In this document: piece by piece, positions 14,062 to 33,431 of the stretch
Layout of the letters: every line of letters starts with the position of its first letter
Numbering within the stretch: position 1 is the stretch's first letter
Source of the DNA: Abditibacterium sp.
Lineage (GTDB): Bacteria; Armatimonadota; Abditibacteriia; Abditibacteriales; Abditibacteriaceae
DNA: 39,459 nucleotides
Assembly (NCBI GenBank): GCA_043773205.1
Contig: JAYVFL010000263.1
Location: forward strand, 1-39,459
Reading direction: 5' to 3'
Notes under the pieces: generated by a model
Told to the model about the DNA's origin: nothing
What the model saw: the letters and a program-made list of their open reading frames with translations, nothing else
Database searches by the model: none
Translations under genes and position numbers: made by a program

Positions 14062-14161
14062 AGTTTTTCTCCCTGAAACCAACTGAATTTAAAGCGCGAA
14101 TCGAGAAAAACGCGCGGCAATCGCTATTTGTCGCCGATAAAAAAGGCGACGAGCGTAAAAT

Positions 14162-15442
14162 TTAACCGTTCATGCCACCCTGAATCATCACTTCGAGTTC
14201 AGCGGGGTTATGAGCGCGGCTCATGGCATCTTCATACGTCACCAAACCGTTCAAGACCAAGTCGCGAAGCGCTTGATCCATGGTTTGCATGCCGATGCCG
14301 TTCTGGGTTTGAATAATCGACGTCATTTGATGCGCTTTGGCCTCACGAATCAGATTTCGGATCGCCGAATTCGCGATCATGATTTCGATTGCGCCAATAC
14401 GTCCGCCCCCGATTTTAGGCAAAAGCTGCTGCGTCACAATCGCAACTAACGAGTTGGAAAGCTGCGTGCGCACCTGTTCCTGCTGGTCGGCTGGAAAAAC
14501 GCCTACCATGCGGTCGATGGATTCCGCCGCTGAGTTGGTGTGCAAAGTGCCAAAAACCAAGTGACCGGTTTCGGCTGCGGTGACAGCCAGGTGAATGGTT
14601 TCGGTGTCGCGCATTTCGCCGACCAAGATTACATCCGGGTCTTCGCGAAGCGAGGCGCGCAAAGCGTTTTTGAACGAGTGAGTGTCGGTTCCCACTTCGC
14701 GCTGGTTCACGATACATTTGCGATGTGGATGCACAAACTCAATCGGATCTTCGATGGTGATGATGTGACCTTCGTGTTCCGAATTGATTTTGTTGATAAT
14801 CGCGGCTAAAGTCGTCGATTTTCCGCTTCCCGTTGGCCCGGTGACAAGCATCAAGCCGCGCGGACGGTTCGCCTGCTCCATGATGACGGGCGGCAGGCCT
14901 AAATCGTCGGGATTGGGGATTTTGGTGGGAATAACGCGCATTGCCGCAGCGAGCGCGCCTTTATCTCGGTAAGCGTTGACGCGAAAACGGGCGCCCGCAT
15001 CGGCTGTTGTGTAAGCGAAATCGAGTTCGAGATCGTTTTCAAAACGCTGGATTTGCTCATCCGACAAAATATCGTAAATGATGCGCTGCAAAACCGAGGC
15101 GCGAACCACTTCGTATTGCTCGATTTCTTTGACGTTGCCGTGAATGCGAATACAGGGCGCTTTTCCAACTGCCAGATGTAAATCGGAGCCTTTGGTGTCG
15201 AGAACATGCTGCAAAAGTTCGTCGATGTGGATTTCATCGAGCGACACTTTTTCAACCGGGGCTTCCACCGGAGTTTCCGATGCGATCCCATTTCCGGCGT
15301 AGCCGCTCTCGCCCGGTGCCTGAGCAGGTCGGGCACCCAAAGGGCGAGGCGTGAGACCATTGCCATTGGTTAAACCTTGCGGGCGCGGTGGAAGTGTGCC
15401 GGGAGCAACCGGACGGCCAACTGTGGCTGGATTTTGTGCCAT
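14162..15442 (-). CDS. pilT: Type IV pilus retraction ATPase
   Basis: GSDLHL, Walker A GPTGSGKST, IEDPIE, LREDPDVILVGEMRD, His-box TLHT and the PilT signature AIRNLIRE; GAGG SD before ATG 15442. Confidence 0.95.
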   Translation of the reverse strand: MAQNPATVGRPVAPGTLPPRPQGLTNGNGLTPRPLGARPAQAPGESGYAGNGIASETPVEAPVEKVSLDEIHIDELLQHVLDTKGSDLHLAVGKAPCIRIHGNVKEIEQYEVVRASVLQRIIYDILSDEQIQRFENDLELDFAYTTADAGARFRVNAYRDKGALAAAMRVIPTKIPNPDDLGLPPVIMEQANRPRGLMLVTGPTGSGKSTTLAAIINKINSEHEGHIITIEDPIEFVHPHRKCIVNQREVGTDTHSFKNALRASLREDPDVILVGEMRDTETIHLAVTAAETGHLVFGTLHTNSAAESIDRMVGVFPADQQEQVRTQLSNSLVAIVTQQLLPKIGGGRIGAIEIMIANSAIRNLIREAKAHQMTSIIQTQNGIGMQTMDQALRDLVLNGLVTYEDAMSRAHNPAELEVMIQGGMNG

Positions 15443-15553
15443 GAAAGATAAAACCTCGAAAAGAATGAAAAACGGAGTCCCCAAAAGAATTCCGTGAAGA
15501 TGACTCGCAAACTCGCGGCCCACACAAAGCGTAGGACGCATTCACCAACCTGA

Positions 15554-15595
15554 ACGTCTGTCGTTCCACGTCTGTTGTTCTACGTCTGTTGTTCT
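15554..15595. repeat. 14-bp tandem repeat x3 (acgtctgtYgttcY) upstream of pilT
   Basis: acgtctgtcgttcc acgtctgttgttct acgtctgttgttct read directly. Confidence 0.85.
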
Positions 15596-15604
15596 ACACG
15601 TCGC

Positions 15605-16129
15605 TTAAATGACGTTAGAAAAACGCATTTCGACGCGTTCACCCCACACAGTGGGATGCGTTGTGACGTGCAACTCGTAAAATTGCTCGTCCACTTGAAG
15701 CCGGATTCGTCCACCTAAAAGAGCATTTTCCTGTTGCAGCTCGATTTGAGCCAGCATTTTGAGACGCGCAACAATTGGTTTAAGTGCCAAAGTCGGCAAT
15801 TTAATATGCTCACGCACATCGCCAGCCACTGTGTAGCGCACGCGCACGTTGCGAGTCTGCGGTTCGATGGAAATAACCGAAGCGCCGTCGCGCACGGCGC
15901 AAAGCAAAATCGTGTTAACGATGCGCTCGACCGGTTCTTGGCCCCGCCAATTATCGGCGCCCGCAGGCGCTTCATTGAGTTCGGGATAAGCCAATTTGAG
16001 CGGCGCAGGCTGCTTCTCTTCTTCGCCGCCCGACTCGAAATCGCGCAGAGTCGCACGTTTTAGCCCTAAAAACGACCAGTATTCGGGTTTCACACGCGCC
16101 TCCTTCACTTGGGATGCGAACTTTCCCAC
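15605..16129 (-). CDS. Stand-alone PilB/GspE N2-domain paralogue without an ATPase domain
   Basis: Its C-terminal ~105 aa align without gaps to the N2 domain of the adjacent PilB (RIVNT.LL.A..DGAS.I.IEPQ...PTVWGE...MR); no Walker motifs; GTG start is uncertain. Confidence 0.75.
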   Translation of the reverse strand: MGKFASQVKEARVKPEYWSFLGLKRATLRDFESGGEEEKQPAPLKLAYPELNEAPAGADNWRGQEPVERIVNTILLCAVRDGASVISIEPQTRNVRVRYTVAGDVREHIKLPTLALKPIVARLKMLAQIELQQENALLGGRIRLQVDEQFYELHVTTHPTVWGERVEMRFSNVI

Positions 16130-16156
16130 ACCGCCGTTTCGCCTCGACAGCGGAAA

Positions 16157-18061
16157 TTAATGGCCGCCGGTGAAAACGACACGCATCACTTCTTCGACTG
16201 TTGTGTGGCCATCTTTGCACTTTTGGAAGCCGTCTTCCTGTAAAGTGCGCATGCCATTGGCGCGCGCGGCTTCGCGAAGTTCCGTGACCGGGCTGCGTCG
16301 CACGATAAGCTCCTGCATTTCTTCGTTGACGCGCATCAGTTCGTAAATTCCGGTGCGGCCTTTGTATCCCGTCTGTTTGCAGACGTCACAACCGCGTCCG
16401 TGCCAGAATTTTTGCGACGGATTCTTAAGCGGATCGAAGCCAAAACGCATCAAAGTTTCGCGCGGCGGCGTGTATTCTTCTTTGCAGCTCTTGCAAATCG
16501 TGCGCGCGAGGCGCTGCGCCAGTGCGCCTGTAAGCGAGGCCGAAATCAAGAACGGCTCGACGCCCATGTCGCCCAAACGTGTCGCGGTCGATGGCGCATC
16601 GTTGGTGTGAATCGTAGAAAGAACAAAGTGACCGGTGAGCGAGGCTTGGACCGCGATTTCCGCTGTTTCCAAATCTCGAATCTCTCCAACCATGATGACG
16701 TCCGGGTCTTGGCGCAAAAAGGCGCGCAGCGCCGTCGCGAAAGTCAGGCCGGCTTTGCGATTGACCTGAACCTGCGTCAAACCGGGCAACTGGTATTCCA
16801 CCGGGTCTTCCACGGTTGAAACGTTCTTTTCAATGGTGGAAACCACGTTCAAAAGCGAATAAAGTGTGGTGGTTTTGCCTGAACCTGTCGGGCCGCAAAC
16901 ATAAAGCATGCCGTTCGGCTGGTTGGCGATGTCGAGCAATTCTTCCTGATGGTCGGGATACAAGCCGATTTTGTCCAAACCGAGCATAACCGAAGATTTG
17001 TCCAGGACGCGCATGACGATTTTCTCGCCCCACACCGTTGGACAGGTGTTGACGCGCATGTCGTATTCCTTGCCCTGCATGGTGAGTTTGATACGTCCGT
17101 CCTGGGGCACACGGCGCTCGGCGATGTTCATTTCCGACATGATTTTGATACGCGAAATCAGCGGATTCAAAACATACTGCGGGATTTTCATCTGCTCGTG
17201 CAAAACGCCGTCGATGCGGTAGCGAATGCGCACGCCGCGTTGCTGCGGCTCGATGTGAATGTCACTGGCTCCGTCTTTCAGGGCGTAAAGCAGCACCGTG
17301 TTCACGATGCGGATAATTGGCGCTTCTTCGGCTAATGTTCCGTTGGACGAGACTGAATCGGGGTTGAGGTTGGTTCCAGCTTTGGCCGCGTCCTCTTCGG
17401 ACACGACCTCGACTTTTTTGACCTTCTTTTTCTTGGCATTTTCGTCTTCGACGACTTCCACCGGCGCGACTTCGCCCAAAATGGCAGCCATGTCGTCGTC
17501 GTATTTGTCCCAGGCTTCGGGTGCAAGCGGGTCGCTGTCGGCTGGTTTTTCGGCGGCGCCATTTTCGCCGGAGTGCCCATTTGAACCGTTGCCGTTGGAG
17601 AGACTGGAGAGTTTGCCGTTTTTAAAGGCTTCAACTTGCGACGGCGCCGCCAAAACGCCGCGAATTTCCATTTTGGTGCGGGTTTTGAGGTCTTCTATCG
17701 CGTAGAAATTTTTGGGGTCGTCCATCGCCACAACGAGCGTGTTGCCCTCGATGGCGACGGGCGTGACTTTCAAACGCGCTTGCAGGTCGTCGGGAACGAG
17801 GCCTTTGGCTTCGTCCGAAGTCGTCATTTTGAGCAAATTGACGAACGAAACGCCGATGACTTCGGCACGCGCTTCGGTAATATCGACGTCCGAAAGCCCC
17901 ATTTCCAACAGAATTGCTTCCATCGGCGTGCCGGGCGCGTTTTGCATGCGCCGTTTGAACTCGTTGCCTTGTTCTTGACTGAGCTTGCCCTTATCAAAAA
18001 GAACGTGAGCAACTGTTTTACGATTCGCGCCCGCGACGGGCTGAGGAGTGGAAAGCGCCAT
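16157..18061 (-). CDS. pilB: Type IV pilus assembly ATPase (GspE/PulE family)
   Basis: GASDIHIEP, ERRVPQDGR, Walker A GPTGSGKTT, VEDPVE, LRQDPDVIMVGEIRD, HTND, CKSC...CDVC Zn motif and GYKGR; GAGG SD before ATG 18061. Confidence 0.95.
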   Translation of the reverse strand: MALSTPQPVAGANRKTVAHVLFDKGKLSQEQGNEFKRRMQNAPGTPMEAILLEMGLSDVDITEARAEVIGVSFVNLLKMTTSDEAKGLVPDDLQARLKVTPVAIEGNTLVVAMDDPKNFYAIEDLKTRTKMEIRGVLAAPSQVEAFKNGKLSSLSNGNGSNGHSGENGAAEKPADSDPLAPEAWDKYDDDMAAILGEVAPVEVVEDENAKKKKVKKVEVVSEEDAAKAGTNLNPDSVSSNGTLAEEAPIIRIVNTVLLYALKDGASDIHIEPQQRGVRIRYRIDGVLHEQMKIPQYVLNPLISRIKIMSEMNIAERRVPQDGRIKLTMQGKEYDMRVNTCPTVWGEKIVMRVLDKSSVMLGLDKIGLYPDHQEELLDIANQPNGMLYVCGPTGSGKTTTLYSLLNVVSTIEKNVSTVEDPVEYQLPGLTQVQVNRKAGLTFATALRAFLRQDPDVIMVGEIRDLETAEIAVQASLTGHFVLSTIHTNDAPSTATRLGDMGVEPFLISASLTGALAQRLARTICKSCKEEYTPPRETLMRFGFDPLKNPSQKFWHGRGCDVCKQTGYKGRTGIYELMRVNEEMQELIVRRSPVTELREAARANGMRTLQEDGFQKCKDGHTTVEEVMRVVFTGGH

Positions 18062-18474
18062 AAAAACCTCTAACGGAAATGGATTCGAGACAACACCGGC
18101 AAACAACGTTATGTCCAAAAGCTGCAAACCCAATTGCAAAAAATGCAAAACAGGTTGGAAACAACACAAAAGCTATACAAGGCACCCAAAAGAGCGCCTC
18201 CAGTTCGAACAGCGATAATTTTACCCGAAAATCATCGAGAGTTGGAAGCAGTTATAAGCTGGCGCACATAGTTTGTGGGCCAATGAGAGCCAGGTCAGAG
18301 GAGAATCGGAGGAGAAAACGCAAGACGCGATGTCAAAGTCAAGCGTTCCCGCGCCCTTCACGCCCGATTTCGCTGATGCGCCTGATTTTGCCGATGCGCG
18401 CAACCTGAACCAATTTCCAGTTGTCCGTTTTTCTGCTTCTCTTCCCGTTTCTGTTAATTGTTCCTGCTCCCAAA

Positions 18475-21400
18475 ATGCGCCGCTCCCTTTCCCTCCTCTT
18501 ACTTTTGAGTTTTTGCTACTCCAATTCGCGCGCCATCGCCGCACCCGAATTTCTCGATGACGAGGCCGAGATCGCCTGCGACGTCGAGTTTTCGCTGCAA
18601 AAAGCCGCTACTGGCCGTTTTGCGCTTCATTTCGACACTCAAAACCCCAAAAACGGCTACATCATGGAAGCGACGCCAACTGGCGCGTCGTTTTTCGCGT
18701 TGCAAAACGGCCAAAAACGGCTTTTATCGAGCGCCAATCTGGTCTGGAAAGCGCAAAATCGTGTGGTTTTGCAGCGTCGGCCCTGGGTGATGCGACTTTT
18801 AATAGATAATCGCGTGGCTTTGACCGCTTTCGATTCCACGTTTCAAAGCGGCAAAATCGGCTCGGAAACCCTTGGGGGTGCGCCCGCATTGGCTACATCA
18901 TTACCCACAGCGGGTTGGAAATGGAACGATGCGCGCGTGCAGCCGGTGGAAAACATTCGTTTCGACGATGATTTCACGCGCGCCGACGGCTCGGGCGATT
19001 CGGCCTGGCAAAGCGCGTCGGGAAAATGGGCGCTCACCGCAAGTTCGACGCACGTTAACGCTCGCAACGCGACGATGAGTTCCAATCCTTTCGCGTTTGA
19101 GGCCAGCGCGCCCAAAAGCAGCGCACTGGCGCGTGCGGGCCGAAAATTCTGGGATTCCTACGATGCGCGCGTGGCCGCGCGTCCGCTGGGGCGCGGCACC
19201 ATCGGCATCGCGGCCTATGTGCAAGACCCCCAAAATTACCTCGCTTTCACCTGGAGCGGAGTGGAAAGTGCGGCATCGCGGCGCCTGATTCGGGTGAAAA
19301 ACGGCGTCACGACGACTTTGGCCAGCGCGTCGGGCGCGTTTTTGCCGCGCGCCTGGAGTGAAATCGGAATTCGCACCTCGCCGGGCGGGGTGGAAGCGCT
19401 TCTCGATGGCGCCCCGGTATTGCGCGCGAGCGATGACTCGTTTGGGCGCGGCCAGGTCGGTTTGATCGCCCAGAATTTGGAAGCCGCGTCCTTCGATGAT
19501 GTGCGCGTGCGCTCGGCAGAAATCTACCGGCAGAACCGCGCTTTGAAAGATGGAAGTTTCGTCAGTCGCGGCGCGTTTTCACTCACCGGACGCGCCAATA
19601 TGGACAACTACCGCTTGCTCGCGCCGCTTCAAAGCGCCCAAAGCGGAGCGTTTGGCCTGGTCGCAGGCTGGAAAGACGCCGAAAACTACACGCTGTTTCG
19701 CGCGGCGAGCGCATCTTCCGTCGATAAAAGCGGCGCGGCGTTTCGCGGTCGCGCGCAAATCGTGCGTTTTGTGAAAGGCGCACCGCAAATTTTGGGAAAT
19801 GAACCGCTGCGCCTCGATTTAAATCGCAATCCGCGCTTGACACTGCGCGCTCAGGAAGGAATTTTAAGCGTTCTCGACGGCGAAAAAACCGTGGTTCAGG
19901 CCGCGCAAAAAGGCCTCACAACGGGCCAGGCGGGACTTTACAACCCGCAATTTTTCGCGCCAGAAACGGTGCTGTATTTCTCGCCGCCCGCCGAAGCGCC
20001 CAAAGTCGCGGCGCGCATGGAAGATGACGCTTACATGGTCGGCTGGGCCAGCGCGACCGGCGAATGGCCACCCACGCCAGGCGATAACGGCCTCGAATTT
20101 TGGAACAGCGGCGAGTTTTTGGGCGATGCGAACCTCGAATTTCCCTGGCGCGCGACTTATAAAGGCAGTTTCGAGATCGCGCTGCGCGCCGAACGCGAAA
20201 AGTTCAATTCCGGCTACATTTTGCGCGGCGAATCGACAGACGACCTCACAAACGTGAAATGGACGCTCCGGCGCGGCGAAAAAGTGCTGACATCGGCCAT
20301 GGCCTCGCTGGACGCGACTTACAAACCGAGCGGCAGCACAAATAGCACCCCGAGCAGCACCACAGGCGATGCCGTGGACGCGACTGCATTCAAGGTCGTG
20401 TTGGATAATGGCAGCATCACGCTTTTTGCGGCGGGCGCTCCCATTTTAAGCACCTTTGACGCGCTGCCTCCAGCGGGACGCTGCATGGCGGTTCGTTCGC
20501 AAGGTTTCCGGGTGCGCGCCGAGCGATTGCGCGCCGTGAGTTCCAACCGCGACGACAGCACTTTTACCGGCGCGCCAACCGATTTTTACTCGACATCGGG
20601 CCGTTGGAGCATCTTTTCGCGCTGGCCATGCTATGGCGACTGGTCGTTTTTCGGTGGCGCTGGCAAAAACCCGACGCTGTGGAGCAAACGCACTTACGGC
20701 GGCGATGTCGTGGCCGAAATGTATGCCCATCCACAGATGAGCCTGCCCAAAGAGCCAGGTTACACCCATCCCGGCGACCTCAATATCACTCTCGCAGGCG
20801 ATGGGAAAAACCTATCTTCGGGCTACTCTTTCGTTTTGGCGGGCTGGGATAACACCCGGTCGCGCGTGATGCGCGGCTCTAAAGTCATCGCGGAAAACGC
20901 GGGCGATGAAGCCTTTTTTCATGAAACCATCACTAATAACATGAAGTGGCACCGCACCTGGTTTCATATTCGTGCCGAAGCGCGCCGCGCCGCTAAAGAT
21001 GGAAAAAACGGCGTTCAACTCACCTTAACTTTGGACGATGCCGTCATCGTAAGTGCTTTCGACCCCAATCCGCTGCCTCAGTGGGAAAAAGGTGGCCGCG
21101 TCGCGTTTTGGACGCTGGATTCCACCATCATGATCGCGCGCGCCAAAGTCGAAGCCGAATATCTGGGCCTCAAAACGCTGCCCGCCGGTTTGCTCGATTC
21201 AACTCCGCCCCTCGCAACCCCGCTCGCGGCCAATGCGAAAGCGCCGATTCCCATCGTTTCAGGCGACGATGCCACTGCCATCGTGAGCGCCGAAACAGAA
21301 GGTTGGAGCGTCACAGATCCAGCATCTGGCGGGATTTTCGAGGTGAAACTGCCGCTTGCAAAGGTGGAAATCACGCCGAAAACCCGCTTGGAGTTGGATG

Positions 21401-21714
21401 TTCAAATTCCCGCTGGCGTTAAAATCGACGCTTATCTTCAAAGCGAAGACGCGCTTTCAACCATCGAACTTACGGGTGACCAGCCCAACGACCCGATGGC
21501 GCCTTCGCTTGGAAAAATGACCAAAAACGGCGAAAAATGGGGTTTCGATATCGGCGCGGCGCTGCAAAAACGTTTTCCCAGCCAAAAAACCTGGAAAATC
21601 GATGCTCTGAGCCTGGGCGCGCGCCACGGCGAGGCCTATCGCTGGGTTGGCTTCGATGGCAATGCGCTCGGCAGCACTTACAAATTACGCGGCTGGCGTT
21701 TAGTCGAAGGCTAA
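18475..21714 (+). CDS. Large secreted protein with repeated concanavalin-A/LamG (DUF1080-like) beta-sandwich domains
   Basis: Signal peptide MRRSLSLLLLLSFC…AIA|A; repeated end-of-domain motifs (FQSGKIG, FGRGQVGL…SFDDVRV, TTGQAGL, KGGRVAFW). Start placed at ATG 18475. Confidence 0.6.
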   Translation: MRRSLSLLLLLSFCYSNSRAIAAPEFLDDEAEIACDVEFSLQKAATGRFALHFDTQNPKNGYIMEATPTGASFFALQNGQKRLLSSANLVWKAQNRVVLQRRPWVMRLLIDNRVALTAFDSTFQSGKIGSETLGGAPALATSLPTAGWKWNDARVQPVENIRFDDDFTRADGSGDSAWQSASGKWALTASSTHVNARNATMSSNPFAFEASAPKSSALARAGRKFWDSYDARVAARPLGRGTIGIAAYVQDPQNYLAFTWSGVESAASRRLIRVKNGVTTTLASASGAFLPRAWSEIGIRTSPGGVEALLDGAPVLRASDDSFGRGQVGLIAQNLEAASFDDVRVRSAEIYRQNRALKDGSFVSRGAFSLTGRANMDNYRLLAPLQSAQSGAFGLVAGWKDAENYTLFRAASASSVDKSGAAFRGRAQIVRFVKGAPQILGNEPLRLDLNRNPRLTLRAQEGILSVLDGEKTVVQAAQKGLTTGQAGLYNPQFFAPETVLYFSPPAEAPKVAARMEDDAYMVGWASATGEWPPTPGDNGLEFWNSGEFLGDANLEFPWRATYKGSFEIALRAEREKFNSGYILRGESTDDLTNVKWTLRRGEKVLTSAMASLDATYKPSGSTNSTPSSTTGDAVDATAFKVVLDNGSITLFAAGAPILSTFDALPPAGRCMAVRSQGFRVRAERLRAVSSNRDDSTFTGAPTDFYSTSGRWSIFSRWPCYGDWSFFGGAGKNPTLWSKRTYGGDVVAEMYAHPQMSLPKEPGYTHPGDLNITLAGDGKNLSSGYSFVLAGWDNTRSRVMRGSKVIAENAGDEAFFHETITNNMKWHRTWFHIRAEARRAAKDGKNGVQLTLTLDDAVIVSAFDPNPLPQWEKGGRVAFWTLDSTIMIARAKVEAEYLGLKTLPAGLLDSTPPLATPLAANAKAPIPIVSGDDATAIVSAETEGWSVTDPASGGIFEVKLPLAKVEITPKTRLELDVQIPAGVKIDAYLQSEDALSTIELTGDQPNDPMAPSLGKMTKNGEKWGFDIGAALQKRFPSQKTWKIDALSLGARHGEAYRWVGFDGNALGSTYKLRGWRLVEG

Positions 21715-21897: not shown

Positions 21898-22701
21898 TCA
21901 AAAATGAGCATCGCAAATCACGATGAAATCATTGTGATGCTTTTGGATCAGGCATTGGTAAATCTTTTCCCACTCGGCAGTGGCGTTGGCTCGCTCGCGC
22001 AGTGGCATCCACGGCATTTCCTCATTTTGGTGCCATTTCCCGCCCGCGACGATGGCATGGCACAACGGCCCGCCCGCCGGTAAATCGCGCACCGCGACAA
22101 GGCAACCTTCGTATTCTGAGCCGGTTTTTCGTTTTGATTCGACTTCTATTTCACTTTCTGCTTGAACCAGGGTGCTGAAATTCTCGCTGAAGCCGCCACT
22201 GATACACCAATAATCCCATTCGGCCTGTGGATTTTGACGTGTTTTCACCCTGCCGCTGCCACGGCACTTCCCGCAATGAGTTTCGGCCTGGTTTTTGAGT
22301 GGGTGATGAAGCAGAGCCTCATGGTAAGCCCGCTTGTATGGCTCGTGAGCCGCGTCCCAGTTTTGGCTGAATTTCTCGCTGAGTTGGGTCAATTCGCTCG
22401 TTTCAGCTTTGGTCAGGGTTTGTGCGTAAGCCAACCGAAAAAGCGCGATGCGGCGGGCGTTAGATGCGCTGTGTTCCCGTTCGAAACGCGCCTCGATTTC
22501 CGCCTCGGTGCCGCACGATTTCTGTGCTTGTTGCTCGGCTTCTCGTTCGGCTTGACGGCCCACGCAACTGCAATTGATTTCGTGTTCCGCCATTTCCAGG
22601 TCGCAGTTGAACGGCGCCATTTTTTGACTCACCGTTTCGTATAGATCCGCTGCCGCGTTCGCGGAATCGGGCGAAATAACCACAAAAATAAGGTAATGCA
22701 C
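21898..22701 (-). CDS. Hypothetical protein, phage-like, with split CxC…CxxCxGxG Zn motif
   Basis: 267 aa, GTG start; NCSC, HCGKCRGSG, NPQAEWDYWCISGGFS and C-terminal ICDAHF. Confidence 0.65.
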   Translation of the reverse strand: MHYLIFVVISPDSANAAADLYETVSQKMAPFNCDLEMAEHEINCSCVGRQAEREAEQQAQKSCGTEAEIEARFEREHSASNARRIALFRLAYAQTLTKAETSELTQLSEKFSQNWDAAHEPYKRAYHEALLHHPLKNQAETHCGKCRGSGRVKTRQNPQAEWDYWCISGGFSENFSTLVQAESEIEVESKRKTGSEYEGCLVAVRDLPAGGPLCHAIVAGGKWHQNEEMPWMPLRERANATAEWEKIYQCLIQKHHNDFIVICDAHF

Positions 22702-24017: not shown

Positions 24018-24779
24018 TTAACGCAGCAAGTCGCGCCGAAAATCTGGTCCCAGTTCGTTCGCCGTGAGCTTGATTTCAAATTGTCCCACCGCATAAGGCC
24101 CCATTTCGTATTGGTTGAACACCCAGCGCAAGCCGTCGCGCCCGGCGGCGAAGTTGTTGAATTGCGCGGTTTCGAGCGTTTTGACGCTGCCATCTTGCAC
24201 CCACATCGCGTTTGGGTCTTTTTTCAGTTTGGCGAAGATTTTGGCTTCCACTTCTTTGCGATAAGGCGTGCCGGAACGGAAGAAATCGCCCAGAGTGAGA
24301 GCTTTGGCCCGCCCGTTAATCACCGCGAAATTGAGCGGGCTAACTACGGTCATGCCGTGCGCGCCGCCTTCGAAAGCGTATGTCACAAGTTCCGTCGAGA
24401 TCAAACGGCGCGTGGCATAAAACTCGGTTGACGGCGCGCTCGCGTAATCGAAGGGCACAGATGCGACCTCCTTTTCAAGCTGAGCCTGAGTGCTTTTCAC
24501 CCAGGCGTTGAAGCCCCAAACGATTCGGGAGCGCAATTTTGCGTTGGCGAAGCGCGCCAGCGGAGTGCGGGCGCGAAACACCGGATAGACCGCTTGGGCC
24601 GTGAAACCTTTGCCGCGCGCACTCAGCGTTTTGAGCCGCGCGACACGACTCAGCGCGGTCAATTTCTGCCCGCCGACGCTTTCCTGAGCATCGGAAGAGA
24701 CCGTGGCCAGCGAAAATGCGGTTAACAGCGAAAATGCGGTAACCCGCGTTGAAAAGGGAGAAAGTGGGCAAATTTTCAT
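24018..24779 (-). CDS. Secreted DUF3298/DUF4163 (RsiV/PdaC-like) protein
   Basis: Signal peptide; YAFEGGAHG, LTLGDFF and FNQYEMGPYAVG motifs; ATGA overlap with folC. Confidence 0.8.
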   Translation of the reverse strand: MKICPLSPFSTRVTAFSLLTAFSLATVSSDAQESVGGQKLTALSRVARLKTLSARGKGFTAQAVYPVFRARTPLARFANAKLRSRIVWGFNAWVKSTQAQLEKEVASVPFDYASAPSTEFYATRRLISTELVTYAFEGGAHGMTVVSPLNFAVINGRAKALTLGDFFRSGTPYRKEVEAKIFAKLKKDPNAMWVQDGSVKTLETAQFNNFAAGRDGLRWVFNQYEMGPYAVGQFEIKLTANELGPDFRRDLLR

Positions 24780-25993
24780 GATTTGGGTGTTGTGGGCGTT
24801 GCGGTGCGCGGCACCTCAGCGATAGTTGTGAACGAACCGGTCACTAAAATCGTGTCTTCGGGACGCGCCAGGAGTTTGGCACGCGCGAGGGCGGCTTCGA
24901 CAGGCGTGATTTCCTCAACGTGATGGCAAAATTGGCGCGCGATTTCAGCGATTTGCGAAGCAGTTGCCGCGCGCGGCGAGTTAGATTGCGTTGCGATGAC
25001 GGTTTTGGCCAGCGGCGCGAGAATTTGCGTCATTTGGGCGAAATCTTTGTCCGCTAAAATGCCCAATACGAGGATGAGATTGGGGGCATCGATTTGGCGC
25101 CGCTTCAATTCGACGGCGATGCTTTGAGCGCCATCGGGGTTGTTGGCGCCATCGATGACAATGTGTGGCGAAGCGGCGATAAATTCGAAGCGGCCCGGCA
25201 CTTCGCTCATGTGATGTGCCGGGAGTTCAGGTGTCGACCAGTGGAGTTGTCTTTTGAATTGGCTGGCCACAACCATTGCAAAAGCCCGATTTTGATGTTG
25301 AAACGAGGGCAAATTCAACGTAGAATTGACGAAAACCGCGCCAATTTGCTCGCAATGGTCGCGGAAAACCGCGAGAACGTTCTCTTTGTGTTCCGCCGTG
25401 ACAAAAGGCCGTCCCGCGCGCGCGATGCAGACTTTATCGGCGGCAATTTCTTCCAATGTGTTGCCCAATCGGTCCATGTGGTCGAGCGCGACGTGAGTAA
25501 CGACCGAAATTAGTGGATCGGTGACATTGGTTGCGTCCCATTTGCCGCCCAGTCCCACCTCGATAACAGCGGCATCGACATTTTGGCGGGCGAAATGCCA
25601 CAAACCCAGAAATGTCACGACTTCGAACTCGGTGGGCTGGCCCAAAGTGCGCGTAACGGCTTCGATATGCGGTTTGGCATCGTTGAAAAGCGCGTCCAGA
25701 TCGGCGTCGCAAATGGCGCCTTCGAAAAGTCCCTGGCCGGGCATAATGCGGATGCGTTCGTTCCAATTGTAGAGGTGAGGCGAAGTGAAAAGCCCGATTG
25801 TGCGCCCGTTTTGCGCTAAAATGCGCGCGGCGAATTCGCAGGTCGAGCCTTTGCCGTTGGTGCCGCCCACCAGCAAAACCGGGTAGCTGTTCTGGGGGTT
25901 CCCGGCGCTCTCGAGCAGGGCACGAATGCGTTCCAGGCCGGGTCGAATGCCAAAACGCTGCAAATTTTGCAGATAAGTGTCGAGTTGAGTCAT
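24776..25993 (-). CDS. folC: Bifunctional folylpolyglutamate synthase / dihydrofolate synthase
   Basis: GTNGKGS, FTSPHL, NERI, TEFE, EVGLGG.WDATNV, LDH…LG, PGRFE and VTGSF motifs. Start placed at ATG 25993 (alternative 26053). Confidence 0.95.
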   Translation of the reverse strand: MTQLDTYLQNLQRFGIRPGLERIRALLESAGNPQNSYPVLLVGGTNGKGSTCEFAARILAQNGRTIGLFTSPHLYNWNERIRIMPGQGLFEGAICDADLDALFNDAKPHIEAVTRTLGQPTEFEVVTFLGLWHFARQNVDAAVIEVGLGGKWDATNVTDPLISVVTHVALDHMDRLGNTLEEIAADKVCIARAGRPFVTAEHKENVLAVFRDHCEQIGAVFVNSTLNLPSFQHQNRAFAMVVASQFKRQLHWSTPELPAHHMSEVPGRFEFIAASPHIVIDGANNPDGAQSIAVELKRRQIDAPNLILVLGILADKDFAQMTQILAPLAKTVIATQSNSPRAATASQIAEIARQFCHHVEEITPVEAALARAKLLARPEDTILVTGSFTTIAEVPRTATPTTPKS

Positions 25994-26176
25994 GGTTTTG
26001 AGCGCGATTTCGGGGGCGAATAGGCCCTGAAACTGGGGGCGAAAAATCGCCATTATGTTAACATATGGCTACGTTCCTGCCCGAAATTGAAGGAGTAAAC
26101 CGCTCTACAGCGCGTGCTTCTGTTTTCCTGTTTCGTCTTTGACGTGAATCCCTGATTATTTTTGAGGTTTCGCTGA

Positions 26177-29100
26177 ATGCGTTGGCCCCGCCGCATACCC
26201 TCTCTCTTTTTACTTTCGCTGGTTATTTGGGTCGTTTTGTGGCCAAATACCAGTTTTGCGCAAACTTCCGATGCCGCAACTTCTGATGTCGCCGCGCGTT
26301 TGCGCTCTGATGTCGAGGCGCTGACCGCTTTTCCTTCCCGCGTGCCTGGAACGCCAGGAAATCGCGCGGCGGCGGCGTTTGTTGAAGCGCGATTCAAGCA
26401 AATCGGGCTTCAACAAACGCGCGCCGACCAAGATTTCATCACCGCGCCCGTGACTCAAAGCGCCAGCCTGACCCTGGGCGGGCGGGTTTTGGAAATCGCG
26501 CCGATTTACCCGAATCACGTTGTCGCCTCAACCACGCCCATCGCCGGGCTTTCCGGCCCGCTGGTTTATGCTGGGCAGGGCAGACCCGTCGATTTCAACG
26601 GGCAAAAAGTGGCGGGTTCGGTTGTGGCGCTCGATTTCAATTCGGGTATGAAGTGGATTACAGCCGCCGATTTGGGCGCCAAGGCCATCGTCTTTTTGGA
26701 GCCAACTCTCACCGAGCGCGGCGAAGCGGAGCGGAAATTCACGTATTTGCCCGTCGAAGTGCCCCGATATTACGCGCGCGGCGCCGTAGCAGACGCGATT
26801 CGGGCTTCCAGCGGCCAAAACGCCACCGTGAAATCGCTTGTGGAGTGGAATCGGGTTAAAGTCGCCAATGTTTTGGGATTTCTGCCTGGCAAAAACCCGC
26901 CCGCCAGCCCGAAAGAGAAGCCCGTCGCCAACACGGTGATCATTTCGGCTTACTTCGATTCGATGTCGGTTGTGCCCGATTTGGCGCCTGGAGCCGAAGC
27001 CGCTGGCAACATGGCCGCGCTTTTGGAAGTCGCCCGGCGTTTCAAGGCCAACCCGCCATCTTATAACGTGCTTTTCGTGGCGAATGGTTCGCATCACATG
27101 GCCTTGGCCGGAGTGCGAAATTTCATCGCTAACCACGTTATCGACCGCGATGGCAAAGGCGACGCCGCCAAAAAAGCCGAAATCGCATCGTATCGCGCTT
27201 TTATCGGCTTGGATTTGACTTCGCGCACCAAAACGGTGGGAATTTTCGCCAAATCGTGGTTCTACAACCAGATGACAGTGGGCAGCGAAAACATCCTGCT
27301 CAACCAGTTTTCCAACCTCGCCAAGTCGGTGGGACGTTACGCACAGGAAGAGGCCGATAAAACCAAATCGCCCATCGAAGAAGCCTTTGTCGATGGCATT
27401 ACAGGTCGCGAAGGTCGCACCTGGCGCTCTTATTTGCCCTCGCAAATCGCGCTCGATTCCGAAGCGGCGACCATGGCGGCGCTGCCCGGATTTTCGTTTG
27501 CCACCGCCAACGATTCCCGGTTGTTACAGGACACGCCTTTCGACACTGTCGCGGCGATGAACCTGCCCAATTTAACCTCTCAAGTGGAATCAGTTGAAGG
27601 TTTGATGCGGCGCACTCTGATTGACGTGGCCGAAGGCGACGCGAAAAGTGCGCCGCTTTTGCCTGCGCCCGGAGTTTTGTCGAAGAATTTCGGTTTTGTG
27701 ACGGGACGCGCCATTTTTCGCGATGTCTCCAAAGCCACCAGTTTTTTGCCCGATACGCCGCTTCCCGATTCGCAAATCGGCAACGCGGGCGTGCAAGCCG
27801 TCGGCGCCGTGGTTTCCGACCGCATTCTCGGCCCGGTTTTAGAAAACAAAACTTATTCGGGCGTGCGCGGCGTAATGATTGAGCGCGCCCAATACTCGCT
27901 GGGCGCCAAGGGCATCAATCAGGTTTCGCAGTTCACTTTTGTCGGCCCCCGCGTGGGCGACCCCAAAGGTGGCGGCACTCCGATTTACGAATTTGAAGCC
28001 TTCGCCATTAACCGCGACGGTCACATGATTTTCGCGCCCGACCGCGGCGCCGAACGCCAACGCTTCATCCCCACTTTCATCAAAGCCAATGCAACGCGCG
28101 ATTATAAAGATGAAAAGCTGCGTCAAATTAACCCGCAGGCCTCGCTGATTTGCTTCAAAGCGCGCGCTGTCACGATTTTCGATACCTTGGATCAGCGTTA
28201 CTTCTCGGTTTTGAAGGAGATGACGGTCTTGGATGCCCGAACCGATGCCAGTCCGGTCGAATACTCGTTTTTGCGGCCCAATGCGCCGGGCGGCATCGCC
28301 GAAATCGAACCCATCGCGGTGATTTTTGGCAAGCGAGACGAGCGCTTCAAACTCATTATGGCGGCGGGTCTGCTGGGAAAACGGCTGGTTTTGCTGCGCA
28401 CAGAAACTCCCGACCTCAAAACCCAGCCCATCTCTTACGAAGGCGCTGGATTCACGGTTGACGACACCTCGGATGCGCTTCGGATTCCCTATTTGGCCTA
28501 TCAAACGGCGCTCGATTTGTGGACGCTCGACCAGCAGCGCATTCAGCTTCTCAAAGGTTTTGGCATTAACAACGAACGCGTCGATGCTTTGCATGGCGCG
28601 GCAGGTTGCCCGCCGGGGGAAAAGAGCGCGTTTTTATGTCCGAAGGCGGCGATTGCACTCCCAACGGGCGGCTCGCTCAAACTGGCGGGAGATGCGCTGG
28701 GCGCGCAGCAATACGACACGTTTTATCGCGAATCGCGCCGCGCTTTCGCCCTCGAATCGCGCGCTTATCCCGACGTGGAAGGCACCTCGCAGGACGTGCT
28801 GAAAGGCATCATCTTCTATCTGGCGCTGCTGCTGCCCTTCGCTTATTTCATGGAGCGGATTCTGTTCGGCTTTTCCGATGTGCGCAAGCAAATCGCGGGC
28901 ACATCCTTTGTGTTCCTCGTTGTTTTTGGCGCGATTCGGTTTGTCCATCCGGCGTTTGAACTCGCGGCGACACCGTTCATTATTTTGCTGGCGTTCGTGA
29001 TTTTGGCGCTGACTGTTGTGGTAACGGCGTTTTTGCAGTCGAAATTCGAAGCCGAACTCAAACGCATGAAGCAGGGCGTGCATTACGCCGACATGGGACG

Positions 29101-31294
29101 ACTTTCGGCGCTTGGCGCGGCGCTAAGCCTGGGCGTTGCCAACATGCGGCGGCGCCCGACGCGCACGGCGCTGACCTGCACCACGCTGATTCTGCTCACC
29201 TTCACGGTGCTATCTTTCACATCGGTGACGGCCAACATCGCGAATTTCGCGCGGCCCTGGGGCGATGAAACCCGTCCGCCAGCTTATCAGGGCTTTTTGG
29301 TGCGTCAGCCCGATTGGGGATCCATGTCCGAAGTGGCTGTTGGATCTTTGCGCAACGAACTCACGGCGCAAAAATTGGGTGAACCGGCGCTTCGCGCCTG
29401 GTATTTATCGCGCGATCAGGGCGAACCGCTTCAAATTCGCGTCAACAGCGCAAGCGACCCCAACAGCTTTTACTACGCGCCCGCGCTGGTTGGAATGACG
29501 CCGCAGGAAGAAGAAATCGGTTCGCCCATTGTCAAAACTCTTTTGCCGGGTGGCCGCTGGTTCCGCCCCGGCGAAACCGATGTGGCGCTTTTGCCACGCG
29601 ATGTTTTGCTCGATGAAGCCACCAAATCTGCCGAGCGTCCCGCCGTTACAAACGGCGCCGCCCCAACGACTTTAGTCGCGGATTCAACACCGAAAGGCTC
29701 GCCGTTGGGCCTGACTTTAGCCAATGCGGTCGGCTCGAAAATTCAGGTGGGCGGGAAAACCTTCACGGTTATCGGCGTTTTTGACGACCGCAAATGGTAT
29801 GGCCGCCAGGCGGCGGGCAACTTGCGCGACATCGACAACGAAGAATTCACGCCGGTCGATTATTCCAGCGATTCCACGCGTCAAAACCAGACGGCGGGCA
29901 CCAATGCCGCGGCTTCGGGCGGCGAAGTGCAGGTTCAGCGCTACGAACATATGCAGGCCAACGCGCTTCTGGTGATTCCCTACCAAACCGCGCTTCACAT
30001 GGGCGCCACCACGCGCTCTTTTGCCGTTGGAATCAAAAATCCAGACGCCGCGCAAAGCGAACTCGAAGATTTGATGTCGAGGGCCGCGCTCGGAATTTTC
30101 GGCGCCACGCCCGACAAAGCCAACGGCGGCAAGCTCACGGCGCGCTTATATTCCTCGGTGGAAGCGACTTCGTATGAGGGTTTTGCTTCGCTCGCGGTGC
30201 CCATTTTGATTGCGGCGCTGATTATCGCCAACACCATGCTCGGTTCCGTTTACGAGCGCACGCGCGAAATCGGCATTTATTCCTCGATTGGACTGGCGCC
30301 GATTCACATCGCGACGCTTTTTATTGCCGAAGCCATCGTTTACGCGGTTTTAGGCTCGATTTCCGGTTATCTTATCGCGCAAATCACCGCGAAAATTATC
30401 ACCGCGACCAATTTATTGCCTGGAATTACGCTCAACTATTCGAGTTCCTCGGCTGTTATCGCGACGCTCATCGTGATGATGACGGTGCTGCTTTCCACGC
30501 TTTATCCGGCTTATGCGGCCTCGAAATTGGCGAATCCCGACTCGGAAAAGAAAGATTTGGGCGATCCGGTAGGCGATTTATGGCGTTTGCAATTTCCGTT
30601 CACCGTGTCGGGGTTGCAATCTTTGGGCATGGCGCAGTTTTTGGCCGATTTTTTCGAGCAGCACACCGACACTTCGGTCGGAAAATTCTACACCGATAAA
30701 ATCAATTTGAACGGCTTGCCGCTCTATGAGGCTGTCGAGCTTTTGAACAATGGCGTTCTCGATCCCGAGATTGAAGTTCACGGCGATGAAAACTCATCTA
30801 ACGGTCAAAACTCAACTAAAGGTCAGAAAAATGGCGCGGCGCCGAGGAAAACCTTGCTGCGCCGCATGCCAAAGCCATCGGAAACGGCGCTCCTAAGCGG
30901 AACAGACACGCCGATGATGCCCTCTACGCCGCCAAAAGGCGGGCGCATCGAATTGGAAAACATCGCTGCCGACCCGCAAACCGAGGTTTATCGTTTGTCG
31001 ATGCGCACTTGGCTTGCGCCCTTCGATATGGGCGTTTCGCAGGATACCGATATCATTTTGCTGCCTTCGGATGAGCCTGGGCTTTTCGAATTGCAACTAC
31101 GTTTAGAGCGCAAAAGCGGCGAAATCGCGGCCTGGAAACGAGTCAACCGCGAATTCATGACCGAACTGCGCAAACAGCTTTTGGTGTGGCGCACGGTGAA
31201 GTCGGCATCGCAACAAGAATACATTTTGCGGGGCCGCGCGCATGTGGCGGGTCAGAAAGTGCCGGTTGAAGAGGCGGGCGCCGTCGTTGTTTAG
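26177..31294 (+). CDS. Fusion protein: signal peptide, M28-peptidase-like (PA-containing, apparently inactive) ectodomain, TM bundle, MacB-type periplasmic domain, FtsX permease, cytoplasmic tail
   Basis: SRVPGTPGNRAAAAFV, PA-like GPLVYAGQG…GAKAIVF, NVLGFLPG, AALLEVAR; MacB TM1 NMRRRPTRTALT; GKTFTVIGVF; FtsX motif NTMLGSVYERTREIGI..SIG…LFIAEA. Confidence 0.85.
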   Translation: MRWPRRIPSLFLLSLVIWVVLWPNTSFAQTSDAATSDVAARLRSDVEALTAFPSRVPGTPGNRAAAAFVEARFKQIGLQQTRADQDFITAPVTQSASLTLGGRVLEIAPIYPNHVVASTTPIAGLSGPLVYAGQGRPVDFNGQKVAGSVVALDFNSGMKWITAADLGAKAIVFLEPTLTERGEAERKFTYLPVEVPRYYARGAVADAIRASSGQNATVKSLVEWNRVKVANVLGFLPGKNPPASPKEKPVANTVIISAYFDSMSVVPDLAPGAEAAGNMAALLEVARRFKANPPSYNVLFVANGSHHMALAGVRNFIANHVIDRDGKGDAAKKAEIASYRAFIGLDLTSRTKTVGIFAKSWFYNQMTVGSENILLNQFSNLAKSVGRYAQEEADKTKSPIEEAFVDGITGREGRTWRSYLPSQIALDSEAATMAALPGFSFATANDSRLLQDTPFDTVAAMNLPNLTSQVESVEGLMRRTLIDVAEGDAKSAPLLPAPGVLSKNFGFVTGRAIFRDVSKATSFLPDTPLPDSQIGNAGVQAVGAVVSDRILGPVLENKTYSGVRGVMIERAQYSLGAKGINQVSQFTFVGPRVGDPKGGGTPIYEFEAFAINRDGHMIFAPDRGAERQRFIPTFIKANATRDYKDEKLRQINPQASLICFKARAVTIFDTLDQRYFSVLKEMTVLDARTDASPVEYSFLRPNAPGGIAEIEPIAVIFGKRDERFKLIMAAGLLGKRLVLLRTETPDLKTQPISYEGAGFTVDDTSDALRIPYLAYQTALDLWTLDQQRIQLLKGFGINNERVDALHGAAGCPPGEKSAFLCPKAAIALPTGGSLKLAGDALGAQQYDTFYRESRRAFALESRAYPDVEGTSQDVLKGIIFYLALLLPFAYFMERILFGFSDVRKQIAGTSFVFLVVFGAIRFVHPAFELAATPFIILLAFVILALTVVVTAFLQSKFEAELKRMKQGVHYADMGRLSALGAALSLGVANMRRRPTRTALTCTTLILLTFTVLSFTSVTANIANFARPWGDETRPPAYQGFLVRQPDWGSMSEVAVGSLRNELTAQKLGEPALRAWYLSRDQGEPLQIRVNSASDPNSFYYAPALVGMTPQEEEIGSPIVKTLLPGGRWFRPGETDVALLPRDVLLDEATKSAERPAVTNGAAPTTLVADSTPKGSPLGLTLANAVGSKIQVGGKTFTVIGVFDDRKWYGRQAAGNLRDIDNEEFTPVDYSSDSTRQNQTAGTNAAASGGEVQVQRYEHMQANALLVIPYQTALHMGATTRSFAVGIKNPDAAQSELEDLMSRAALGIFGATPDKANGGKLTARLYSSVEATSYEGFASLAVPILIAALIIANTMLGSVYERTREIGIYSSIGLAPIHIATLFIAEAIVYAVLGSISGYLIAQITAKIITATNLLPGITLNYSSSSAVIATLIVMMTVLLSTLYPAYAASKLANPDSEKKDLGDPVGDLWRLQFPFTVSGLQSLGMAQFLADFFEQHTDTSVGKFYTDKINLNGLPLYEAVELLNNGVLDPEIEVHGDENSSNGQNSTKGQKNGAAPRKTLLRRMPKPSETALLSGTDTPMMPSTPPKGGRIELENIAADPQTEVYRLSMRTWLAPFDMGVSQDTDIILLPSDEPGLFELQLRLERKSGEIAAWKRVNREFMTELRKQLLVWRTVKSASQQEYILRGRAHVAGQKVPVEEAGAVVV

Positions 31295-31355: not shown

Positions 31356-33431
31356 ATGGCATTACTTTCTCAAATCGAACCCGAAAAAAAGGGAGGCCTT
31401 ACCGGTCCACTCGATATTTCTTCGCCAACCAACGATGCATCACTGGATGTCACGGGCGAAGACGAAGAGTTTTACGACGGGTTTTCCTGGAAAACCGTGA
31501 TCGGCGCGCTGTTCATCGGTTTCATTATGATGCCGGGTTCGATTTATCTGGGCCTTATCGCGGGGCAGGGCATGGGGCCAGCCGCCGAATGGGTCACGAT
31601 CATCCTGTTCATGGAGGTCGCGCGGCGCTCCTATCAAACCATGAAAAAGCAGGAAATTTACCTGCTTTATTACGTGGGCGCCGCCCTGACAACACAAGTG
31701 GCCGGAATTGCGATTGCGGGTGGCCCGTTTGCGACTTTAATTTGGAACTCTTACGTGGCCAACACGCCCATCGCCAACCAGTTGGGCATTACCGAAGGGC
31801 TTCGCAACGCGCCGTGGGCCGCAATTATCGGCGATTCGCCCGGTTTATTGAACCGCACCTTTTTCAGCGCCGATTGGCTCCCCGCCATCGGTTTGCTGAT
31901 GTTCAACCAGCTTTTTGGTCGCATGACATCCTGGGGCTTAGGTTATGTGCTGTTTCGCATCACGAGTGATGTCGAAAAACTGCCGTTTCCCCTCGCTCCC
32001 ATCGCGGCAGAAGGCGCGACGGCTCTGGCCGAATCGTCGTCGCAAAAAGAGGGCTGGCGCTGGCGTATCTTTTCGATTGGTTCGATGATTGGCGTTGGCT
32101 GGGGCGCGATGTATATCTTGCTTCCCGCCGTCACCGGCCTGATTTTCGCGCAACCCATCACGATTTTGTCGGTGCCGTTCATCGACTACACCGCCAACAC
32201 CCAAAAAATCTTGCCCGCCGCGCTGACAGGTCTTGGAACCGATTTAGGCCAGGTATTCATTGGGTTTTTGCTGCCGCTTCCGGTTGTGGTGGGCACTTTC
32301 ATCGCCTCGATTGGGTGTTTCGTTTTTGCGAATCCAATTTTGCAAAACGGCGGCATCTTGCAGCGTTTTGGATACAACGGCGGCGTGCTGAAAACCTGGG
32401 TTCAGGGCACCGATATGCTGCAAACGCAGCTCGTCAACACGCTCGATTTCTGGCTTTCCTTTGGAATTGGCACCTCGCTTGTGGTCGCTGTTATCGGGGT
32501 TTTCAGCGTGGTGCGCTCGCTAATTAAGGCGCGCAAACAGAATGAAATGGGCGTGGGCACGTCCAGTTTGGTGCCGCCGCCCGGTCGCGGTGACATCTCG
32601 ATTTGGCTTTCTCTGGCGATTTTTGCCGTGGGAACGGCGGCCTACATCATCATGTGCCACGCTCTGGTGCCAGCCTTCCCGCTGTGGGTTTTGATCTTCT
32701 TCGGTTTCGTCTGGACGCCGATTTTCTCTTATATCAACGCGCGCATGGCGGGTTTGGCGGGCACGAACGTCTCTATTCCTTACGTGAAGGAAGCCAGTTT
32801 CATGCTTGCGGGTTACCGCAATGTTGACATTTGGTTCGCCCCGATTCCACTCGCCGATTACGGCTACATGGCGACTCATTTTCGCACCGTTGAACTGACC
32901 AAAACCAAGTTCACTTCCATCATCAAGGTCGAACTTTTGATGCTGCCAATTATGCTGGGTTGTTCGCTGCTTTTCTGGAGCTTCATCTGGAAATTGTCGC
33001 CGATTCCGGCTGCGAGCTACCCATTTGCCGCCAAATTTTGGCCCATTAGCGCGCAAACGCAGGCGCTGTGGTTCACCGCCAACCGCGAAGGCGAAAGCAA
33101 CTTCTTGTTGCAATCGATTCGCATGCCTTACATCCTGGCGGGTGGCGGCGCGGCAGTTTTGTCGTTTGGAGCCATCGTCGCGGGCGGCTTGCCGGTGCTG
33201 CTGTTTTACGGCCTCATCAACGGAACTCACACTTTGCCCGCATACGCTCTGCCGCAGTTCATCGGGGCGATGCTGGGCCGCTATTACTTCCAAAAACGCT
33301 ATGGAAAAGAGAATTGGCGGGCATTTACGCCGGTTTTAGTCGCCGGATATTACTGCGGCATGGGCTTAATTGGAATGGCGGCGGTTGCACTCGCTCTATT
33401 GTCCAAAAGCGTGTCGCGGTTGCCGTTTTAA
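31356..33431 (+). CDS. OPT-superfamily-like polytopic membrane protein (putative peptide transporter)
   Basis: 691 aa with many hydrophobic segments; FSWKTVIGALFIG…YLGL.AG N-terminus and EKLPFP motif resemble OPT/YSL transporters; 61 bp downstream of the fusion gene. Confidence 0.7.
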   Translation: MALLSQIEPEKKGGLTGPLDISSPTNDASLDVTGEDEEFYDGFSWKTVIGALFIGFIMMPGSIYLGLIAGQGMGPAAEWVTIILFMEVARRSYQTMKKQEIYLLYYVGAALTTQVAGIAIAGGPFATLIWNSYVANTPIANQLGITEGLRNAPWAAIIGDSPGLLNRTFFSADWLPAIGLLMFNQLFGRMTSWGLGYVLFRITSDVEKLPFPLAPIAAEGATALAESSSQKEGWRWRIFSIGSMIGVGWGAMYILLPAVTGLIFAQPITILSVPFIDYTANTQKILPAALTGLGTDLGQVFIGFLLPLPVVVGTFIASIGCFVFANPILQNGGILQRFGYNGGVLKTWVQGTDMLQTQLVNTLDFWLSFGIGTSLVVAVIGVFSVVRSLIKARKQNEMGVGTSSLVPPPGRGDISIWLSLAIFAVGTAAYIIMCHALVPAFPLWVLIFFGFVWTPIFSYINARMAGLAGTNVSIPYVKEASFMLAGYRNVDIWFAPIPLADYGYMATHFRTVELTKTKFTSIIKVELLMLPIMLGCSLLFWSFIWKLSPIPAASYPFAAKFWPISAQTQALWFTANREGESNFLLQSIRMPYILAGGGAAVLSFGAIVAGGLPVLLFYGLINGTHTLPAYALPQFIGAMLGRYYFQKRYGKENWRAFTPVLVAGYYCGMGLIGMAAVALALLSKSVSRLPF

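Follow-up and report, generated by a model that had tools for sequence, protein, structure and literature searches.

The 39,459-nucleotide stretch of Abditibacterium sp. analysed here (contig JAYVFL010000263.1, hereafter the window) encodes a giant membrane protein, P0001, whose N-terminal head resembles an M28 aminopeptidase with an altered active site. A preliminary description had proposed that the head has lost its zinc-binding and catalytic residues, that it resembles nicastrin and nicalin, and that it gates a substrate instead of cleaving it. The locus raises the question of whether the head is still an enzyme, what it is related to, and what it does on a membrane protein.

Architecture of the giant protein and state of its active site

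The coordinates of the protein and of the segments discussed below are as follows.

26177..31294, forward strand: 1705-residue membrane protein P0001, comprising head, stalk, extra helices, MacB/FtsX permease and cytoplasmic C-terminal domain
26177..26260, forward strand: probable signal peptide, residues 1-28, placed by a hydrophobic stretch at 7-25
26450..26842, forward strand: PA (protease-associated) domain, residues ~92-222, inserted in the M28 fold
26852..27646, forward strand: degenerate M28 core, residues 226-490, from profile and AlphaFold2 model
26948..26959, forward strand: AYFD, in frame, residues 258-261
26990..27004, forward strand: GAEAA, in frame, residues 272-276
26948..27004, forward strand: segment from AYFD to GAEAA, with Tyr259 for the first His, Asp261 kept, a 10-residue loop and a one-residue deletion
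27086..27097, forward strand: GSHH, in frame, residues 304-307, with His306 at the general-base Glu position
27212..27214, forward strand: Asp346, one retained metal-ligand position (146/150 rows)
27455..27547, forward strand: polar set D427, E429, D446, R448, D452, T453, P454 and D456 (112, 127, 135, 143, 121, 130, 141 and 142 of 150 rows, respectively)
27527..27547, forward strand: QDTPFDT, in frame, residues 451-457
27647..28792, forward strand: predicted extracytoplasmic stalk, residues 491-872, beta-sandwich domains followed by a helical bundle
28796..29047, forward strand: three extra predicted membrane helices, residues 874-957, from hydropathy
29171..30526, forward strand: MacB/FtsX-type permease, with a helix at 999-1017, a periplasmic domain and PF02687 at residues 1339-1450

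The AlphaFold2 model of residues 30-490 (pLDDT 94.2) displayed a PA-inserted M28 fold, which is a Zn-exopeptidase fold. The isolated head domain scored 36-38 bits on Pfam Peptidase_M28 (cut-off 21.3), and the PA domain model PF02225 was found in 11 of 35 aligned family members. Fold searches with the head model ranked active PA-M28 aminopeptidases first; glutaminyl cyclases and the GPI-transamidase chain share the fold. The stalk (residues 491-872) gave no clear structural match. As judged from PF02687, PF12704 and hydropathy, the permease core consists of four helices, the first two of which are separated by a periplasmic domain, and at least seven membrane helices are predicted in P0001. The head is 86% identical to a protein of Abditibacterium utsteinense, a cultured close relative, so that the system is open to study.

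The motifs AYFD, GAEAA, GSHH and QDTPFDT, from which the loss of the active site had been proposed, were all confirmed in frame in the open reading frame at 26177-31294. We aligned P0001 with 21 listed homologues and 128 further phmmer matches (alignment A2, 150 rows). The controls were 68 ordinary M28 proteins from the same phylum, which remained from 75 loci after removal of six wrong ORF picks and one duplicate. The canonical H, D, D, E, E/D, D/E and H were retained by all 68 controls. In the family, the first His was present in only 15 of the 150 rows, with Tyr instead in 118, and Glu was found at neither general-base position in any row. His at or next to the last-ligand position was found in a single row; P0001 has D452 there. 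The segment with the bridging Asp was one residue shorter in 150/150 family rows than in the 68 controls and 29 nicalins. Two positions are retained, namely Asp261 (150/150) and D346, which is the ligand Asp/Glu after the fourth core strand (146/150). At D261 and D346 the proposed loss needs correction.

As judged from the alignment, the site substitutions are a family-wide property and reflect neither chance nor decay. The data support the loss of the canonical two-zinc site across the family, and the head very probably lacks canonical aminopeptidase activity. The preliminary description had also suggested that the new HH pair might form a rebuilt metal site. His306 was indeed present in 148/150 rows, but His307 in only 37 (F in 68, Y in 14, G in 12); since H307 occurs in so few rows, the pair is a local trait and was rejected as a metal site common to the family. 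In the Vibrio aminopeptidase mutant E151H (2anp), the introduced His is the residue that aligns with H306, and the mutant scored higher than the wild type against the family core profile (40.6 versus 34.6 bits).

The picture differed among the 56 matches obtained with an archaeal query, where H259 was kept in 32, D274 in 32 and E275 in 46. By the counts for H259 and E275, the archaeal branch is less eroded than the remaining family. Several of its members, including P0245, P0266, P0294 and P0290, keep His259, Asp-Glu at 274-275 and Asp346, and one metal site may survive in members of this branch.

Resemblance to nicalin and nicastrin

For comparison with nicalin we collected 52 loci from metagenomes, of which 11 unrelated or short ones and one duplicate were removed; the remaining 40 were scored and 29 were aligned. 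A profile of these sequences gave 691-696 bits with the PDB nicalin and 36 bits with P0001. Several comparisons placed nicalin close to the family. The family core profile had nicalin as its top match in the PDB, with 48.2 bits versus 45.0 for YwaD, and a 40-column motif profile gave 33.1 bits for nicalin versus 18.1. Conversely, the nicalin core profile yielded a median of 29 bits (max 50) for the 150 family members as compared to 14 (max 45) for the 68 controls. In profile-profile comparisons with seven prokaryotic M28 groups, the best match of nicalin was the family (132-140), followed by the M28-PDZ group (118) and the others (71-97), with family alignments that were deeper than those of the other groups, and depth can raise such scores. 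The profile alignment of nicalin with the family had a probability of 98.7; its 292 columns started in the PA region and continued to the end of the core. A 10-residue loop that separates the conserved Asp from GA(D/E) was found in 150/150 family members, 29/29 nicalins and 0/68 controls; the 29 nicalins were chosen by a pattern requiring this loop, and PDB nicalins not so selected align gap-free there. An aligned Glu in DSE/EHE is also shared by the family and nicalin.

The similarity was less exclusive from the family's side, where intact M28 groups scored 159-164 and 142-145 versus 125-132 for nicalin in profile-profile comparisons, and controls reached 55.5 bits with the family core profile versus 52.7 for nicalins. 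Nicalin retains the first His in 24/29 sequences, has Gly-Lys for Glu-Glu and is without the one-residue deletion of the family, and these differing replacements fit a parallel decay of the two sites. Nicalin was not among the top 50 structural matches in any fold search with the head model. A search among long proteins with the nicalin profile returned three animal nicalin fusions and no family member, which is weak evidence. The Asgard members were no more nicalin-like than the others, with scores of 25-30 bits against the nicalin profile compared with a median of 29-30. The top nicalin-profile scores in the archaeal-query set were those of P0374 (54.2 bits) and P0359 (49.5 bits).

The phylogenetic trees were based on 172-192 columns and were unstable; their intact controls represented two bacterial phyla and no archaea, and nicastrin was included in none of them. 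Under LG+F+G4 (69 rows), the family and nicalin grouped with two intact proteins, presumably ERMP1-like, with UFBoot 95, and with UFBoot 99 when 17 motif columns were excluded; the family and nicalin alone received UFBoot 8 and 5. Mixture-model trees (LG+C20 PMSF, quick search), in which support was given by SH-aLRT only, placed the family with nicalin at values of 0, of 91 with more ERMP1-like rows, of 36 without motif columns and of 69 with archaeal rows. Nicalin was not nested among the Asgard members in the free tree. AU tests rejected none of the groupings: nicalin with the ERMP1-like proteins gave p 0.66, with a likelihood above that of the free tree, the family with M28-PDZ p 0.45, and the nicalin and Asgard clade p 0.38.

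The proposed likeness to nicalin was thus borne out in part. The profiles and the 10-residue loop lend it modest support, and nicalin leads the PDB sequence matches by 3 bits, whereas the fold searches favour active PA-aminopeptidases and the trees neither show nor reject a sister relationship. These comparisons suggest, to a modest degree, that the head resembles nicalin more than the other peptidases tested do, and make the family a candidate relative of nicalin.

Nicastrin gave a different result. Family profiles matched nicastrin chains with 13-14.6 bits (E 0.38-0.46 for the core profile), and the motif-only profile did not recover nicastrin at E<=10. The Pfam model PF05450 had no match in the source genome at E<=0.01; elsewhere in the phylum it matched eight ORFs of 308-686 aa in 7/61 genomes, none of giant length, and in the family it was found in 5/35 members at E<=1 (best 0.002). 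P0001 is without the DYIGS motif. A special resemblance to nicastrin was therefore rejected: PF05450 matches other M28-type ORFs and not the giant protein, and what similarity there is can be described as generic for M28.

A more far-reaching reading takes the family as the prokaryotic sister group or ancestor of nicalin and, by way of nicalin, perhaps of nicastrin. The zinc-less head would then be of prokaryotic origin, having first served an ABC/OPT machine as its substrate lid; early eukaryotes would have separated it from the permease and put it to new use in the multipass translocon and in gamma-secretase. The Asgard carriers in this scenario are Heimdall-, Hod-, Promethe- and Jordarchaeal. 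We consider the scenario as a whole doubtful, though worth stating, as the family provides a concrete and testable candidate source for the nicalin ectodomain that is present in Asgard archaea. In the literature searched, which was mostly without subscription papers, we found no paper linking Asgard archaea to nicalin and none on a prokaryotic source of the nicalin or nicastrin ectodomain.

Distribution of the family and its partner genes

A phmmer search identified 1860 clusters (50% identity) at E<=1e-3, the weak tail of which may include ordinary M28 proteins, and 629 at E<=1e-30. Named carriers among the best 80 of 381 loci included Armatimonadota/Abditibacteriota, Planctomycetota, Kiritimatiellia, TA06 and Omnitrophota; further carriers, from a search with 91 matches of which only a minority are named, included Thermoprotei, Thermofilaceae and Deltaproteobacteria. 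Four proteins are named by their source as Promethearchaeota, Heimdallarchaeota, Hodarchaeales and Jordarchaeales, labels that derive from metagenome bins. No relative was found on viral contigs. LysM (PF01476), which hints at binding of glycans, occurs in part of the family; the entries noted in this respect are P0359, P0374, P0377 and the Atlas cluster of rank 9. The Atlas clusters of ranks 23 and 25 contain proteins of 923-1109 aa, most commonly from Thermodesulfobacteriota, with scores below 0.9. In one of these two clusters M28 is present in 78% and no FtsX is listed; the two clusters may represent permease-free relatives.

Downstream of the giant gene in the window lies a second gene of interest.

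31356..33431, forward strand: 691-residue polytopic OPT-like protein P0270, 61 bases downstream of the giant gene

An OPT-like gene was found in this position in 51 of the 55 loci where the sequence extended 2.5 kb or more (55/80 of all loci). The assignment of P0270 as OPT-like is weak: PF03169 matched 3/20 of its homologues (best E 5.4e-8, below full length), a comparison with DUF6785 gave a probability of only 47.8, and P0270 itself had no match to PF03169 and no sequence match in the PDB. Recurrent neighbours in 81 loci were a 300-aa protein of unknown type (20), a PqqD-like protein (17), an ABC ATPase (12, including 11 on the same strand) and DUF6785/6784 proteins (9), and a small FtsX protein also recurred. 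The locus order was giant, OPT-like, 300-aa protein, PqqD-like, small FtsX and ABC ATPase. The 300-aa partner had no match in Pfam, NCBIfam or the PDB, and no OPT-like or DUF6785 domain was fused to the giant in any of 269 proteins.

The source genome is 79% complete, and other parts of the system were located on contigs C221, C531, C13, C15, C133 and C438. The PqqD-like, small FtsX and ATPase genes lie together on C221, where the ATPase displays Walker A, LSGGQ, DEP and TH motifs; four DUF6785 genes are located on other contigs. The best NCBIfam model for the ABC ATPase was LolD with 231 bits, as compared to 146-149 for ECF ATPase models.

Of 61 genomes of the phylum, the same 46 contained the head gene, the P0270-type gene and PF20581 (DUF6785). 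The small FtsX was present in 45 of these 46, and head, P0270, PF20581 and small FtsX were all absent from the other 15. The 15 negative genomes make up seven whole families, none of which is mixed, and the pattern thus represents few independent events. The head core was mostly present in a single copy (up to three), whereas DUF6785 gave from 2 to at least 20 matches per genome. In a sample centred on Planctomycetota, the head was found in 7/61 genomes, all with DUF6784, which itself occurred in 11/61. In all likelihood, the head is part of a multi-gene system, in which a second permease and a LolD/MacB-type ATPase are present by gene linkage (small FtsX in 45/46, ATPase adjoining). The fused FtsX/MacB permease and the partner genes, which the preliminary description did not mention, are the most informative features with regard to the function of the head. 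This would be a machine whose head is found in 46/61 sampled genomes of one phylum, and whose variable subunits number 20 or more in the genomes with the highest counts.

Other observations concern genes at or near these loci. The 300-360 aa partner (G000 C531:1465-2544 and L016:14851-15723) has an invariant CxxC and C-terminal Cys/His residues. DUF4432 (PF14486) follows the OPT-like gene in 9/81 loci (L032, L044, L046-L048, L050, L071, L073 and L080). A FolC-like Mur ligase gene (24776-26053, reverse strand) is divergent from the giant gene in 12/81 loci, all from close relatives. OPT proteins are described as transporting folate in fungi and plants (PMC12687453), and the combination is a lead only. 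Elsewhere in the window, a type IV pilus/T2SS-like cluster (2539-18169, reverse strand) encodes T2SSE ATPases, T2SSF, four N-methyl pilins and an A24 prepilin peptidase, together with a protein of 1389 aa that matches GspK weakly. Three ORFs of 1097, 630 and 267 aa (18421-21714, forward; 583-2475, forward; 21898-22701, reverse) are without a Pfam or NCBIfam match.

The literature searched, mostly without subscription papers, contained no paper describing the family, the combination of an FtsX-like permease with M28, PqqD and an oligopeptide transporter, a type VII ABC protein with such an ectodomain and OPT-like/PqqD-like partners, or DUF6785, DUF6784, PF20581 and PF20580. The ABC/OPT-like machine is apparently undescribed.

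Proposed function and comparison with known systems

We propose, with a probability of roughly 0.55, that the head acts as a lid that binds a ligand without proteolysis, and that it does so on an ATP-driven type VII ABC (LolCDE/MacB-like) motor working with OPT-like permeases in nutrient uptake. The observations behind this proposal are the fold, the site loss, the FtsX/MacB fusion, the co-occurrence and the LolD-like ATPase beside the small FtsX. The narrower claim that the head pocket binds a ligand without catalysis is probable, based on the fixed loss of the site and the strong conservation of the pocket residues. In the proposed machine, one energising core would serve many subunits, as in group II ECF transporters, which combine such a core with interchangeable specificity subunits; here, the scattered DUF6785 paralogues would be the interchangeable specificity subunits on a shared core. 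The giant protein would pair with the small FtsX, as a LolC/LolE-like heterodimer, and with the LolD-like ATPase. Driven by ATP, movement of the stalk would make the former active-site pocket (H306, D346, E429, R448 and D452) open and shut. A ligand, which may be peptide-like, a chelate or an oligosaccharide, would be captured there and passed to the OPT-fold subunit. LolC and LolE are described as forming heterodimers, and ATP is described as moving the periplasmic domains of MacB-type permeases, with the substrate not being carried across the membrane (PMC5985334).

One challenge to a binding head comes from the residues that remain in the pocket. H306, D346, Glu/Asp274 and D452, with His259 in archaea, could hold one metal or act metal-free in an acyl transfer, cyclisation or deacylation on a substrate presented by the motor. 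The near-invariance of H306 (148/150), D346 (146) and R448 (143), the archaeal counts of H259 (32/56), D274 (32) and E275 (46), the fold shared with glutaminyl cyclases and the GPI-transamidase chain, and the pairing of a type VII ABC protein with a hydrolase in YbbAP-TesA (PMC12646458) would all be consistent with such a rebuilt site. However, most members have lost the general base as well as three of the canonical ligands, and D452 and E274 vary between branches, which makes a rebuilt enzyme unlikely. That the head is an ordinary aminopeptidase, or the product of a decaying or mis-sequenced gene, is scarcely credible: although active PA-aminopeptidases lead the fold-search results and members carry the database label 'M28 family peptidase', the same substitutions recur in 150 diverse homologues with intact frames of 1450-1900 aa. 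Such labels are probably wrong for the family members.

The direction of transport and the nature of the client can also be questioned. The machine might export, extract or mature peptides or lipoproteins, with the PqqD-like protein binding a peptide in the cytoplasm and the head holding it outside. The PqqD-like gene, which is found in 17/81 loci and beside the ATPase in the source genome, is as compatible with the export or modification of peptides as with import, and the ATPase is nearest to LolD/MacB. Yet there was no recurring precursor peptide or modifying enzyme among the clustered neighbours, and the DUF6785 paralogues, which number 20 or more in some genomes, would better fit many imported substrates; we regard export as quite unlikely. 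A further suggestion, prompted by the sequence likeness to nicalin and by the role of nicalin as part of a translocon for multi-pass proteins (PMC7505659), is that the giant serves as a scaffold or chaperone for multi-pass membrane proteins such as the DUF6785 paralogues and has no small ligand. This we consider improbable, since P0001 and nicalin differ in topology (seven or more helices plus an ABC permease versus an ectodomain with a C-terminal anchor) and since entire families of the phylum are without the system. The matches listed for the stalk included no NOMO or TMEM147 structure. The preferred reading remains a ligand-binding lid on a type VII ABC motor.

Several known systems can be compared with this one. 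Group II ECF transporters likewise have one shared energising core and many scattered membrane subunits, but their folds are unrelated to those of the giant system. The PA-M28 aminopeptidases of the YwaD/AM-1 type (B. subtilis YwaD/BSAP, 6hc6 and 6hc7; Aneurinibacillus AM-1, 2ek8) keep the two-zinc site, which is absent from the head; a further difference is the fusion of the head to a membrane motor. Nicalin (NCLN; 6w6l, 7tm3) shares with the family an M28 fold without the full site and the 10-residue loop; it is an ectodomain with a single C-terminal anchor and no FtsX fusion, in contrast to P0001 with its at least seven helices and FtsX permease. Nicastrin (5a63, 4r12) has an aminopeptidase-derived ectodomain with a pocket proposed to bind or gate the substrate (PMC7248309, PMC2647162), as is proposed here for the head, but its partners, presenilin, APH-1 and PEN-2, are unlike those of the head. 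The type VII ABC systems LolCDE, MacB, FtsEX and YbbAP-TesA have in common with the giant system an FtsX/MacB core of four helices, in which a periplasmic domain follows helix 1, as well as a second small permease and a LolD-like ATPase (PMC5985334). P0001 differs from these in its 870-residue N-terminal ectodomain and three extra helices, and its system in that a PqqD-like protein and OPT-like proteins of two kinds strictly co-occur with it.
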